A stretch of 64,000 nucleotides of DNA, taken from assembly GCF_054482525.1 (NCBI RefSeq), contig NZ_CM137006.1; one strand, 5' to 3'. This document shows, one piece after another, positions 33,001 to 39,000 of this stretch. Position 1 is the first letter of the stretch; every line of letters starts with the position of its first letter. The position numbers are program-made.

Positions 33001-36000
33001 TTACTCTGCATGTTATCTGGCCGTTTCTGTGGATCTGGGCGACGCTCTATCAACCGGAGCGTGGCTGGGGTATGCAGTCACATGTTGCGTCGCAGGAGAA
33101 AGCGACTGACCCGGAAATCGCCGCACTTTCTGACCGAATTTCCCGGCTGGAGCATCAACTCGCCGCCGAGAAAAAGACTGACTATTCCACGTTCCCGGAG
33201 ATCTAATTATGGATCTATTGATCGTTTTAACTTACGTGGCGCTGGCGTGGGCGGTCTTTAAAATCTTCCGCATTCCGGTGAATCAGTGGACGCTGGCGAC
33301 GGCGGCGCTGGGAGGCGTGTTTCTGGTGAGTGGTTTGATTTTGTTGATGAACTACAATCACCCTTACACTTTTACCGCGCAAAAGGCAGTGATAGCGATC
33401 CCCATCACGCCACAGGTGACGGGAATTGTTACTGAAGTCACTGACAAGAATAATCAGCTTATTCAAAAGGGCGAGGTGCTTTTTAAACTCGACCCGGTTC
33501 GTTACCAGGCGCGAGTTGACAGACTTCAGGCTGACCTGATGACGGCGACGCATAATATAAAGACGCTGCGCGCGCAGCTCACTGAAGCGCAGGCCAACAC
33601 CACCCAGGTTTCAGCGGAGCGCGACCGTCTATTTAAAAATTATCAACGTTATCTGAAAGGCAGCCAGGCGGCGGTGAATCCGTTCTCGGAACGTGACATC
33701 GACGATGCGCGGCAAAACTTCCTCGCGCAGGACGCGCTGGTGAAAGGCTCGGTGGCGGAGCAGGCGCAGATCCAGAGCCAGCTCGACAGTATGGTTAACG
33801 GCGAGCAATCGCAGATTGTGAGCTTAAGAGCGCAACTTACTGAAGCAAAATATAACCTTGAGCAGACTGTCATTCGCGCACCAAGCAATGGCTACGTTAC
33901 TCAGGTACTGATCCGCCCAGGTACATACGCAGCTGCCTTGCCGCTACGTCCGGTGATGGTTTTCATCCCCGAGCAAAAACGGCAAATTGTCGCCCAATTT
34001 CGGCAAAACTCGCTGTTACGTCTGAAACCCGGCGATGATGCGGAAGTGGTGTTTAACGCGCTACCTGGGCAGGTGTTCCACGGCAAACTGACCAGTATTT
34101 TACCTGTCGTGCCAGGCGGTTCGTATCAGGCGCAAGGGGTATTGCAATCATTAACGGTCGTGCCCGGCACGGACGGTGTGCTGGGAACCATTGAACTGGA
34201 CCCTAACGCTGATATCGATGCCTTACCCGACGGCATCTACGCCCAGGTGGCAGTTTACTCCGACCATTTCAGCCATGTTTCGGTGATGCGGAAGGTGCTG
34301 CTGAGAATGACCAGTTGGATGCATTATCTTTATTTGGATCATTGAGTAGGGAAGGGGGAGATTATGGAACTTTGCTCCCTGTAAGGACTAATTATTTTTG
34401 CATATTACTTCATTGGCTGCGATGATTTTTCGTTAATATCCATTATGTTAAGAAGTTCGGGATGAGTGTGAACTCATTGGATTTTTTATCCGTCTTGATC
34501 TGCCGAAGGATCAGACCATACATTGTCGAGATCGCAATGATGATATGAGTTGTTCCTCTGCCACGGCTCTAATCAAAAAAGAGCAGGAGTGCTTTTCCAT
34601 CTATTGCGATGATGGCTTTATTATCTGAAGGATGACAGTCACATTTAAAAATATTTAATTTATAGATCACAATGTAGGTTCATGTAATATATGTATACAA
34701 CTATTTTTCTCTTCACTTTTAATTATCGTATTCATTATAACACTAAGTTAAAAAACTCCTGGAGAGTGAGTCATTAATATATTTTTAAATATAATTAAGT
34801 TATTATTCATCGATGCATTTTATAGAATCATCAATGGCTACAATAGTACTATTAACTCTCCAATTTATATTTTTATTATCATTGCAAATATTAACTGAAT
34901 CTATATCAATGATTTTTTTATTTTTATCTTTTATTTACAGTTTCAATGCAATCAGCGACAAGTTGGTGTGGATTTAGATTCTTCAGATATGGTCTTATGA
35001 TCTTTCCCTTGCTTAATAAATAGCATGTATAGGATTCGGAAAGTCCAGCATCTATTTTGTACATCATTATTCTAGATAAGGATGTGAGAAATGCCTTGTT
35101 ATCATTAGCAGCCATATATGCCAGTCCGAGTTCAGCCTCTGCGGCTTTACATGAAAAATAGCTAAGTGAACACGCTTTTCGTCCCTCTTGGGTACTGGCT
35201 GATATTAGTGCCCATAATATTGCCTTGTCTGCCAAATCCAACTCTCTCTGAAATTGGTTTACAGTAACTGCATTCGCAGAAATAGAGAAAAAAAGCACAA
35301 TTGTTAATAACCTTGCCATATTTCTAGTCCGTCACTGTTAATGTGCTATCTGGCTCTGAAAATATTAGCTCATTTAATTTTTGCATGTCATTAGATGAAC
35401 CAGTTATACAACCCTCGGAACAGAATCGAGGTCCTAAAGATGGACCAAAAGCGTTTAAACAACTATGTGTTAAAAATCCATCACGATTATACGTTTCTGT
35501 ATTTGCTGACGGTACTAAACGTATACCATTAGGTTTTCTATTAGTTGCTCCAGGACCATTAACATTCCAGCTCCATACCCCTGGAGGTATTGGGCCTCTA
35601 TTTTGTAAGTGTGTACAACCAGGATTATTTTTACATTGCATATTATTACCATTATTACCAGAGGCGACTGAAATAGTAAGCACACCATAAGAATTATCAT
35701 CACTTGGCGTATCTGAAACGCATGAAAGCATACCTAAAGTTATGCTGTATAAACAGGTCGCTAATCCCAACGGGTCAATATCAGTTATCGGATTCAACGG
35801 ATACTGATAAAAATTCCATCCCCCCTTCAGTCCAATCGGATCCTGAGTGATATACCGCCCCTGCAGCTGGTGCGGGTTCTCTTCATTCAGCAGGTTGCCC
35901 CACTCATCGTATTCTGCGCACCATTCTGTTGCCCCTTCCGTGCTGATAAGCACCAGCGGCAGGCCGCGATGGTCGCAGTGGTACAGGTGGATTTTTCGCG

Positions 36001-39000
36001 CCGGCGTGTACACCGGGTCCATCTGGTTTTGCATCTGCGCCACCGTCAGGCCGCACGATGCCAGCCAGCGTCGGCTTTCCTCACTCACCCGGTCAGCCAG
36101 GATTTCACTTTCCAGCCGGTCGAGCATCTGCACCGTGCCGGCGGGAATACCTCACTGTGCATAGGCAACTCACGCTATGAACGCTTCAGCTTATCAATAA
36201 CGGAAGTTATAATTTCATTGTCATCAAACTTGTACAACATAGTATCTAAAACAGGAAGTAGCGTTTTATCACCTAATTCACCCGCAGCTTCAATGATATC
36301 ATCATAAACAGTATTTTTTTTTAACTCATCGCATAAAACAGATAAAACCCTTTTATCTTTTCTGTAGGAAAGTCCGATTATTGCTTCAATACGGACTTCC
36401 TCATTTTTATCCTGAAGCATCTCCACAAAATAATCCCTAATATCACTATTATCATATTTATTGATATTTATTGCAAATGCGGCCCAGTTTCTGACATCTC
36501 CATTTGGATCTTTTAACAGATTAATCAATAGTGGAATTGTTTCTTTATCATTGATAACAGAAATAGCAAATGCCGTAGCACGTCTGACATTAGCCGATTT
36601 ATCAAAAGCAGTAATTTGAGATTGTTCTACTATTTTAGGTGAATAAATTGGGTTTTTCTTGCATCGCTGAGCAGTTGACTCGATTGCTGTAGCTCGAACG
36701 CAAGCACTTTTATCATTCAGTGCCATCTTTTTTAAAATATTAAAAACGCTATCTTCGCATTTTTTGCAAACTTTTATTTGCCCGAGTATAAATGCTCCTA
36801 TATCTCTACGGATATAATTTTTGTCAGCGCAGAATTCAATTGCCAATCTAACAGCGTCTTGCCCACCTCTTAGCTGCAATACTCTGGCAGATGAAATCCT
36901 TTTCAATGAATTGCGATTATCAAGTAAGCGAAATAATTCATCATCATTTAGTTTCTTACATTGATTGTATAAACCATACTCTTTACTTGCCTTTCTTTTC
37001 TGGTATGTATTCGACATTGCAGGAACCTCCATAAAGACTATCTTTTTCTATCGTTTGACTGTCTGGAGTCCTCCACCTACTCTGCCATCAGCACACACGA
37101 TGTTTGTTTATCCTTACATACTTATTTTCCGTGGCCAAAATTTAGAATTCTCCCGTCATTTTTGCCTATTTCTATAATAAAAACCCTACCAGCAATTTGG
37201 TCTGATTCAATGGTGCCTTCAACAATCCAACTTGTTGGTAATTCCATGATTTTGTATGGTTTTTCTTCTTCTTCTTCGGCATCATGTCCATAACGATTTT
37301 TAACATACATCTCAGCTAATTCCAATGCTATAGCTTTATTTTTGACCAAATTTCTAACGGTGTATTTCCCCTCACTTTCATACTTGCGCATTATAATAAT
37401 ATTATTACACTGCGCCCATGTGTTGTATGTAAAAATAAAGATACAATCACATAGGTTCTGAATAATATTTTCTTATACGTTGTCATGTATTTTGCAAACA
37501 TTAGGCAATCCTTTTCCATTTATTATATCTTTCCCATGATTATCTATTGCTTTAAAATTTTCACCTATTGACCTTGAATTACTACAATCACTTCCAGTGA
37601 AATCTGAGTTATTCAGAATAGCATTCATCAGAGCCGCATTGCGAAAGACAGCATTTCTAGTTGATGTATGTTGAATCATTACATTTCTTAAATGAGTTTT
37701 TTCAAATTTCGCCCCATCAAGACAATAACCATTGAGGGTGGCACGATGTAGATTCATCCCGCTAAAATCATATCCAGCAAGAGTGGTACTATCTATCTCA
37801 AGAAATTTATTGGTTATTAAAAATGCGATTCTTATCATCTGTTCCTCCAATCATCTAACTCCCGAAAAATTTGAAAACCAGAACCTCGCTTAGGCCTGTG
37901 TCCATACTACGTGGGTAGGATTATTCTACGTACTACGCTGTTGTCCCTTACGTGCTGATAAGCGCCAGCGGCAGGTTATTCGGTTTGCGTCGTTGAGTTC
38001 ACTACACTAAAACTCCGTGCCCATATAACCCAAGTCGGAGGCATGCCTTCCTCTGGTTCGTTCCATCTAAAATGTCTATACATAACATGGTTATTCAATT
38101 ATTTTTTCTTTGAGTTTATTCTCAATCCAGCTGTCTTTATACCTGATGAAAATTTGACATTCACCAATATTATCAATGTCACCAACATTTGTGTTTCGAA
38201 TTTGACCAACAGCAACTATAGTTGATTCAAAATATTCAACATTGACATTATCTGTAATTATTGAAATTATATAATCATCTGGAATAGAGCCATTAGGAGT
38301 TATATTGAAGAAACTAACATCTGAAAATACCAAATAACCATCTTCTAAGTCTTCATTATCATAAAAATTCCATTCTGTTGTACCATAGGCTATCCTTGAG
38401 ATTAAATTAACCTGAATTCTAATTTGTTTACTCCATAAATCAAATTCAATTTTTTATTGCTCGATCACCAAGATATATTCTATCAAACATATTACCCCCC
38501 TATTCTAAAAATACTCAGGCATTCCGCACATTATATCAGCCTCATCTTGATTGCTTCCCGTTTCCCAATACGGCGGCGCGGGGAGTCATAAAGGTAAGAA
38601 ATTTCCAGCAGTACGGCGTCCTATTGTTCACGGCGGTAATGCACCAGCCAGTATTGGCTATCGTAGTGATAACCGTGTAACCTGCCGCCGCATCGCGTAT
38701 CTAATGTTCATTCTTTTCCATAAACCGTCCGTACACATTGTGATAGTAAAAATACAATACATCTTCGCTGATGCGGTTATTCTGCTGCATGTGGGAAGCG
38801 CCGAATACTGCTCCCGGTATGGCCAGTAATTACTATTTAGTACGACGTTAGGGGGAGTCACTTAATCTCACAGATACTTCAAGTAACAGATGAAAATCGC
38901 TCCTGAAATGAAAAAGAAATTTTTTTGAATGTGTTCCTGTCAAATCAAGTGGTTTTTTCGTCGATATGTAGAGTCATATTGTACACAAAATAGTTACGAA

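Follow-up and report, generated by a model that had tools for sequence, protein, structure and literature searches.

Among the toxins of the L,D-transpeptidase fold, those deployed against rival bacteria have been described from two directions. Zhang et al. 2012 recognized Imm57 (and Imm16) as immunity partners of toxins termed "Tox-LD-peptidase", with RHS repeats among the toxin architectures, and the Tlde1 preprint (10.1101/2020.02.18.954545) repeats the Tox-LD-peptidase/Imm57 pairing. The same preprint reports Rhs-DUF2778 fusions in 11% (387/3510) of the genomes of one Tae7 family, e.g., Shigella sonnei WP_052983304.1, and its three DUF2778 families were later renamed Tlde1a, Tlde1b, and Tlde1c. 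Tlde1a is toxic in the periplasm, where the H121A and C131A substitutions abolish its toxicity, and it combines L,D-carboxypeptidase with D-amino-acid exchange activity on tetrapeptide stems (10.1101/2020.02.18.954545, PMC9638812). Orphan Rhs toxins, on the other hand, are known from Salmonella Typhimurium LT2, in which such an element is silent until recombination (Koskiniemi et al. 2014, PMC3967940). Here, we consider a cassette that brings these themes together in a 64,000-nucleotide stretch of the Escherichia coli chromosome (contig NZ_CM137006.1 of NCBI RefSeq assembly GCF_054482525.1; hereafter the window, meaning the whole of that stretch). With a rough probability of 0.8, it can be read as an orphan Rhs-Tlde1 toxin of the L,D-transpeptidase fold with its Imm57 immunity gene at the rhsA locus, silent and in an early stage of decay.

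The window is oriented in reverse relative to K-12, and its genes run in the order selB/selA/yibF (plus strand), rhsA (minus), several small genes, yibA (minus), the cassette, yibH/yibI (plus), and mtlADR (minus). The cassette is thus the terminal orphan toxin/immunity unit of the E. coli rhsA locus, situated between yibA and yibH. Its constituents are given below, the two minus-strand open reading frames having already been delineated with these limits in an earlier note on this DNA:

34803..34936, minus strand, out-of-frame remnant of the Imm57 C-terminal tail (IKDKNKKIIDIDSVNICNDNKNINWRVNSTIVAIDDSIKCIDE and a stop), disconnected by a 5-bp deletion
34924..35319, minus strand, Imm57 immunity gene, an allele of K-12 yibV, ATG start, cut to 131 residues
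35324..36133, minus strand, orphan Rhs reading frame of 269 residues, GTG start, comprising a core remnant (residues 1–124) and the toxin domain (residues 125–269)
35327..35761, minus strand, toxin domain of the Tlde1/DUF2778 type with the L,D-transpeptidase fold, residues 125–269
35408..35410, minus strand, codon of Cys242 in the toxin domain, in the motif S239-E240-G241-C242-I243
35465..35467, minus strand, codon of His223 in the toxin domain
35762..35842, minus strand, core end DPIG-x18-DPLGL, residues 98–124, read directly from the sequence
35861..35867, minus strand, single GCTGCAG copy, left where two 7-bp direct repeats had bounded an in-frame segment of 84 bp that is now deleted
35868..36133, minus strand, 5' core remnant, 267 bp with 95.1% identity to the 3' core of the resident rhsA
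40076..44263, minus strand, full-length rhsA, 1395 residues

As a type, the cassette is already known: both genes are named by the NCBI Prokaryotic Genome Annotation Pipeline (PGAP), and the association of Rhs, toxin, and immunity gene was published in 2012 and 2020. A megablast search with 34800..36200 recovers at least 25 complete E. coli genomes with 100%-identical DNA and 114 records at 99% identity or more. In one of the former, strain 1190, PGAP annotates an "RHS domain-containing protein" pseudogene, a 135-residue "tlde1 domain-containing protein" (WP_071599171.1), and an "Imm57 family immunity protein" flagged as frameshifted. The order of Rhs core, LD-peptidase tip, and Imm57 is the same as in the Rhs-DUF2778 fusions and in the Tox-LD-peptidase/RHS/Imm57 arrangements of Zhang et al. 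2012; however, those fusions are full-length and presumably deliverable, whereas the window carries a 269-residue orphan with a deleted core and a cut Imm57.

The residues downstream of the Rhs core belong to Tlde1/DUF2778 by profile, fold, and catalytic residues, and not to the Pfam YkuD family. The Pfam model Tlde1_dom (PF10908) matches residues 165–253 at E=5e-7 (30.6 bits, model positions 10–105 of 120), whereas a Pfam scan of the toxin reading frame gives no match to YkuD (PF03734) even at E<=10, the similarity to the latter being confined to the fold. NCBIfam holds no model that matches either the toxin or the immunity protein, and only its Rhs core models match. A HMMER scan of 1.84 billion representative proteins yielded 171 relatives, several of which constitute the C-terminus of full-length Rhs proteins of 1378–1570 residues. 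When the profile of 65 such relatives was compared by hhalign with that of 23 stand-alone DUF2778 proteins, the two aligned with 99.5% probability (E=1.8e-22), with the GPIPxG, GRxGFxxH, and SxGCI blocks in register; the stand-alone DUF2778 proteins in turn show a weak profile match to 4lpq (E=0.04). An AlphaFold2 model generated from the 65-domain alignment (predicted local distance difference test score, pLDDT, 93.6; predicted template modelling score, pTM, 0.89) retrieved only proteins of the L,D-transpeptidase fold among the top 50 Foldseek matches in the PDB—annotated L,D-transpeptidases along with Bd1075, DpaA, Pgp2, and Csd6—and structure comparison matches it to Tlde1a itself as well. 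Thus, both of the checks that the earlier note had proposed for the tail, by profile against the Tlde1 families and by structure prediction, came out in favor of its suggestion.

That suggestion had sprung from the peptides RDGFLTHS and FCSEGCITG, which are indeed found at residues 217–224 and 237–245 (as is a third quoted peptide, at residues 98–115) and which had been likened to the His/Cys motif of the YkuD-type enzymes. In terms of the fold and the two catalytic residues, the likeness holds well: in the alignment of 65 trimmed toxin domains, to which all counts that follow refer, His223 is kept in 64 and Cys242 in all. It fails in the detail of the motif, which reads SEGC instead of SHGC, and in the want of a Pfam YkuD match. 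The interval of about 19 residues that had been placed between the two peptides proves to be the distance from His223 to Cys242, the gap between the peptides themselves being 12. The surroundings are equally well kept, with R217 in 63/65, S239 and G241 in 65/65, and position 243 occupied by Ile in 35 and Val in 26. Position 240, in contrast, is not fixed, being Glu in 37 of the relatives, Ala in 10, and Lys in 5, with T, N, and Q after these, and its equivalent is variable in the stand-alone DUF2778 proteins too; hence, the Rhs-linked clade is not characterized by the second His of the YkuD motif. R217 and G241 are the equivalents of Tlde1a R115 and G130, which are conserved across the Tlde1 subfamilies (PMC9638812). 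The His-Cys distance is 19 in 36 of the relatives and lies between 12 and 24 in 64 of them. Six further cysteines are retained—C127, C138, and C238 in all, C167 and C225 in 64/65, and C173 in 58/65—and their positions look like three local disulfides (C127-C138, C167-C173, and C225-C238), the last of which would close the long His-Cys loop. The domain in the window keeps every conserved residue and is fully intact. An early MAFFT alignment had made His223 appear unconserved by placing the His of two distant homologs at Gly234; the larger alignment and hhalign overruled this.

Set against Tlde1a (STM14_0336 of the Salmonella Typhimurium pathogenicity island 6 (SPI-6) type VI secretion system, PDB 7UMA), the domain shares the Pfam family, the catalytic His and Cys, the Ser before Gly-Cys, the Arg six residues before the His, a cognate immunity protein that is exported (putatively so here, from a signal-like N-terminus judged by inspection), and stabilization by disulfides (here putative). 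Nevertheless, the identity is only 20%, with no direct sequence match, and the architectures diverge: Tlde1a is a stand-alone cargo effector with the motif S-H-G-C, a His-Cys spacing of 10, the cysteine pairs C37-C111 and C66-C86, and a DUF2195 immunity protein (Tldi1a), while the domain in the window is fused to an Rhs core, has S-E-G-C with a spacing of 19 and three putative local pairs, and is accompanied by Imm57.

Most likely, the module codes for an L,D-peptidase toxin that attacks peptidoglycan from the periplasm and stays silent in this genome. On a full-length Rhs protein, the toxin domain would be encapsulated in the YD shell, released at DPxG-x18-DPxG, and delivered into the periplasm of a neighboring cell, most probably by a type VI secretion system. 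Action in the periplasm of the target cell is the most likely on account of the homology with Tlde1a. There, Cys242, activated by His223, would attack the bond between meso-diaminopimelate and D-Ala (mDAP3-D-Ala4) of the peptidoglycan stem peptides, and the predicted outcome would be L,D-carboxypeptidase and/or D-amino-acid exchange activity and a weakened cell wall. Exported Imm57 would block the toxin in the periplasm of the producer.

An alternative that accepts the fold would have the reaction or substrate differ from those of Tlde1a, e.g., a pure L,D-carboxypeptidase like Csd6 or Pgp2, a cleavage of the Lpp-peptidoglycan linkage like that of DpaA, or a target other than peptidoglycan. The Glu in place of the second His and the 19-residue His-Cys loop bracketed by the conserved C225 and C238 both speak for such a departure, as does the precedent of Tlde1b and Tlde1c, which are without the capping insert of Tlde1a and may differ in activity (PMC9638812). 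Against it, the equivalents of R115 and G130, to which exchange of D-amino acids has been linked, are retained; a presumably exported immunity protein, together with the six conserved cysteines outside the active site, suits a target in the periplasm; and no sign points away from peptidoglycan. As for Csd6 of Helicobacter pylori, Pgp2 of Campylobacter jejuni, and the YkuD-type L,D-transpeptidases, the spacing of 19 comes close to the YkuD motif; these are housekeeping enzymes of cell shape and cross-linking and not toxins, they occur without an Rhs context, and Pfam YkuD, as noted, is unmatched here. A chemistry different from that of Tlde1a is conceivable, but we would regard it as doubtful.

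The second gene of the cassette begins 4 nucleotides past the toxin stop, and its 131-residue product matches Pfam Imm57 (PF15596) over practically the entire model (E=8.5e-45, positions 2–100 of 100). As the family was paired with LD-peptidase toxins by Zhang et al. 2012 and the N-terminus is signal-like, the proposal in the earlier note that this reading frame is the exported immunity partner is supported. The N-terminus (MARLLTIVLFFSISANA, followed by VT) offers an Arg, a hydrophobic core, and A-x-A, and is Sec-signal-like by inspection only; the Imm57 homologs likewise have hydrophobic N-termini. A 5-bp (AAATA) deletion between 34936 and 34937 shifts the frame at codon 131, shortening the protein from 173 to 131 residues and costing it the last 42 codons of the intact reference (isolate 648). 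Consequently, the window copy falls short of the full-length form of about 173–182 residues with a C-x22-C tail; the C-x22-C pair of that tail is kept in 4 diverged homologs (173, 175, 177, and 182 residues; 24–52% identity). The synteny of toxin and immunity gene recurs in loci with full-length Rhs proteins bearing related tips, which are followed by an Imm57 gene in the metagenomic L005 (182 residues) and L008 (177 residues) and by a diverged Imm57-like gene in L006 (132 residues, naturally without the tail) and L011 (161 residues); at locus L009, no Imm57 gene stands behind the Rhs toxin tip.

Of 5426 complete E. coli genomes, 3690 have toxin/Imm57 DNA adjoining yibH, for the most part with some 90% identity; the arrangement seen in the window (a long core fragment joined directly to the Tlde1 tip) occurs in only 97 genomes. 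At the same site by yibH, K-12 carries yibS/yibW/yibV (b4650, b4651, and b4615), with about 88–90% DNA identity to the window; the MG1655 annotation lists yibS and yibW as pseudogenes and yibV as a "PF15596 family protein". Deletions of 9 bp and 1 bp disrupt the toxin frame in both K-12 and O157, where Imm57 carries a frameshift too, and the K-12 counterpart has other lesions besides and a short, degenerate core remnant. In contrast, the allele in the window has an intact toxin domain fused to a yibJ-type core fragment, while the window has neither the yibJ toxin tip nor the yibG of K-12. Between the window and K-12, the ratio of nonsynonymous to synonymous substitution rates (dN/dS) is 0.24 for the toxin (dS 0.27) and 0.32 for Imm57 (dS 0.14), from which it follows that both have been under purifying selection for most of their divergence. 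Protein searches and the sampled genome hits revealed no full-length E. coli Rhs with this tip, although sampling of this kind cannot exclude one.

These patterns raise the alternative that the immunity gene is what matters, i.e., that the orphan locus protects against Tlde1-armed competitors and the toxin reading frame is a passenger. The breadth of the distribution by yibH would fit it, as would the persistence of an Imm57 remnant where the toxin is broken (in O157 and, as yibV, in K-12), the dN/dS of Imm57, and the commonness of intact 173-residue forms, e.g., a cluster of 542 member sequences. However, Imm57 is itself frameshifted in the window, K-12, and O157, the lost tail holds the C-x22-C pair conserved in the diverged homologs, the many truncated forms in circulation look like neutral decay, and no promoter is evident in a scan that was uninformative. 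On balance, a protective role is not to be preferred, though it has something to commend it. A more far-reaching conjecture, which we advance only tentatively and consider improbable as a whole, combines several of these threads: the Rhs-linked clade, with its 19-residue loop closed by Cys225/Cys238, its Glu for the second His, and no capping insert of the Tlde1a type, may have a reaction or specificity distinct from Tlde1a, Imm57 may represent a novel kind of protein inhibitor directed at enzymes of the L,D-transpeptidase fold, and the near-ubiquitous Imm57 remnant next to yibH in E. coli may bear witness to selection that such toxins once exerted.

As a side observation, the dS of the toxin domain (window 35327..35761 against the K-12-like locus L004) is about twice that of the adjacent Imm57. 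A dS of 0.27 is high for E. coli alleles at one locus, which hints that the alleles might have been acquired separately or that there might have been recombination within the cassette. The E. coli Imm57/YibV proteins, for their part, fall into length classes of 173, 169, and 155 residues and numerous others of 103–143 residues, each with tens to thousands of members; across the species, this single orphan immunity gene is visible at many different stages of decay.

The 269-residue reading frame is an allele of K-12 yibJ-5'/yibS/yibW, and its 5' flank aligns with the K-12 yibA-yibJ junction. The fragment starts at GTG and has no full core, as the earlier note had stated: the Rhs models are matched only at RHS_core positions 1111–1200 (NCBIfam) and Rhs_assc_core (TIGR03696) positions 42–76 of 76, alongside a Pfam RHS match at E=2.2e-14. 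A complete Rhs-associated core domain, needed for a functional fusion, is therefore lacking in this frame, whereas in the resident rhsA the core is complete and is accompanied by DUF6531 and RHS repeats. As is characteristic of an orphan cassette, the 269-residue frame retains only 3' Rhs core sequence, has no YD shell, lies downstream of a full-length rhsA, and is homologous to the 3' core of the latter. DPxG-x18-DPxG is the demarcation between core and toxin, and a putative autoproteolysis motif, in Rhs/Tc proteins. With DPIG at residues 98–101 and DPLG at 120–123 (PxxxxDPxGL), the genuine demarcation is present here and the toxin domain starts at Ala125; the conserved core end had previously been placed at the DPIGLKGG stretch, one DPxG(L) too early, the true boundary being at residues 120–124.

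Two lesions had gone unnoticed until now, the 5-bp deletion in Imm57 and the 84-bp deletion in the core. The latter takes out 28 residues of the Rhs-associated core relative to both the rhsA in the window and the orphan of E. coli Tig207, and it accounts for the limits of the Rhs_assc_core match. Between the deletion junction and AATCCG, 79 bp match rhsA at 98.7% identity. In Tig207, the cassette is undamaged, with a 297-residue orphan that starts at GTG and keeps the full core end, a toxin domain of 95% identity, and a 173-residue Imm57; both lesions in the window are accordingly secondary. The possibility that the 84-bp gap marks a recombination junction between yibJ-type and yibS-type core fragments was rejected, as both of its sides are rhsA/yibJ-like and the same orphan in Tig207 keeps the 84 bp. 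In a separate instance, isolate 648 of E. coli (L003, 1758..3012) has a transposase of the ISAs1 family (H-repeat) directly upstream of its Tlde1 tip, and its residual Rhs core fragment begins at essentially the same GCTGCAG heptamer as the deletion in the window; breaks may tend to recur at the heptamer, or the agreement may be a coincidence.

Upstream of the GTG start, an in-frame stop lies at a distance of 10 codons, no Shine-Dalgarno sequence is found at a usable distance from the GTG, and the orphan has no credible translation start. Taken together, the missing YD shell, the want of a credible start, the core deletion, and the cut Imm57 are the reasons why the window copy is regarded as a silent cassette in early decay.

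The earlier note had further supposed that the fragment is silent until recombined onto rhsA, and this leads to the alternative that the cassette is a usable reserve, in which homologous recombination with rhsA would furnish the full-length gene with the Tlde1 tip and Imm57 and so arm the cell with a new toxin. The Salmonella LT2 orphan, likewise a toxin/immunity pair downstream of a main rhs with shared core homology, was activated in just this way (Koskiniemi 2014, PMC3967940), and the window offers both the 267-bp and 79-bp blocks of homology to rhsA and a toxin domain with all conserved residues. However, the LT2 pair is of another toxin type and has its homology and immunity intact, whereas that in the window is compromised by deletion and frameshift. 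A crossover in the 267-bp block would bring the 84-bp deletion (28 core residues) into rhsA, an undamaged fusion could come from the 79-bp block only, and with a truncated Imm57 the recombinant might poison itself or its kin. Hence, the supposition is only partly tenable: silence is in keeping with the above observations, while activation has about 79 bp of homology left for an undamaged fusion and a truncated immunity gene, and a serviceable reserve is unlikely. Finally, independent expression and function of the 135-residue product from Met135 (35731), which PGAP calls as a coding sequence in identical DNA, is very improbable, as it would be without the first beta strand and the invariant Cys127, has no signal peptide for the periplasm, has as its sole Shine-Dalgarno-like element an AGG 2–4 nucleotides from the ATG, and corresponds to a part of what in the intact Tig207 allele reads continuously from the Rhs core.

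Against these alternatives, the reading of the cassette as a silent Rhs-Tlde1/Imm57 orphan in early decay is preferred, but several points weigh against it. Direct sequence searches of PDB chains, whether with the toxin domain or the 65-sequence profile, return no L,D-transpeptidase, and therefore the link to Tlde1a rests on profiles and predicted structure. The strict [S/T]-H-G-C motif is absent, Glu240 standing where Tlde1a has its second His, H129, and the His-Cys spacing of 19 as against 10 means that the substrate or the reaction could differ from that of Tlde1a. In the literature searched, no experimental paper on Imm57 or on the activity of an Rhs-borne Tlde1 was found, nor any structure of Imm57. 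With respect to silence, the promoter/terminator scan is uninformative on expression, with 12 promoter-like sites where chance alone predicts 10.7, and the truncated Imm57 might still work, seeing that the L006 homolog does without the tail. The toxin domain is intact and the module only mildly damaged, and "silent relic" is in this sense a description short of proof.

Viewed from the perspective of what such a locus can teach, a toxin of the L,D-transpeptidase type was recognizable from raw sequence by its His/Cys motif, and the K-12 genes yibS, yibW, and yibV become explicable as the decayed remains of an Rhs-Tlde1/Imm57 cassette. The window captures such an orphan early in its decay, at a point where damage has reached the delivery core and the immunity tail but not the toxin domain. 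Together, the intact pair of Tig207 and the nearly intact pair of the window provide convenient material for the study of Rhs-borne Tlde1 and Imm57.

The remainder of the rhsA locus displays further elements of the same kind, the annotations within 37122..39341 being those given by PGAP on identical DNA:

36175..37032, minus strand, yibA, a HEAT-repeat protein
37122..37391, minus strand, frameshifted NTF2-fold immunity gene
37122..39341, minus strand, array of orphan immunity-type genes between the rhsA immunity gene and yibA
within 37122..39341, minus strand, DUF6258 protein
about 37473..37850, minus strand, split pentapeptide-repeat pseudogene
38994..39341, minus strand, NTF2-fold immunity protein with a signal-like N-terminus
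39510..40079, minus strand, gene of 189 residues downstream of rhsA and overlapping it, "hypothetical" in PGAP
40076..40540, minus strand, rhsA toxin tip, approximately the last 150 residues, after DSMGL

The resident rhsA tip matches no Pfam family even at E<=10, its NCBIfam matches being to the Rhs core only, and the 189-residue product too is without a Pfam match at E<=10, with an N-terminus that resembles a signal or lipoprotein signal peptide. The two form an active-looking pair that is less characterized than the Tlde1/Imm57 cassette. The tip also differs from that of the rhsA that directly precedes yibA in K-12. Here, yibA lies about 3 kb downstream of rhsA, while in K-12 it follows directly; standing at that distance from an rhsA with a different tip, yibA, too, has probably been displaced and left an orphan. 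Its counterpart in Tig207 has an internal stop. No toxin fragments were found between the immunity-type genes of 37122..39341, and the whole of this array looks like a poly-immunity island left by successive displacements of toxin tips.

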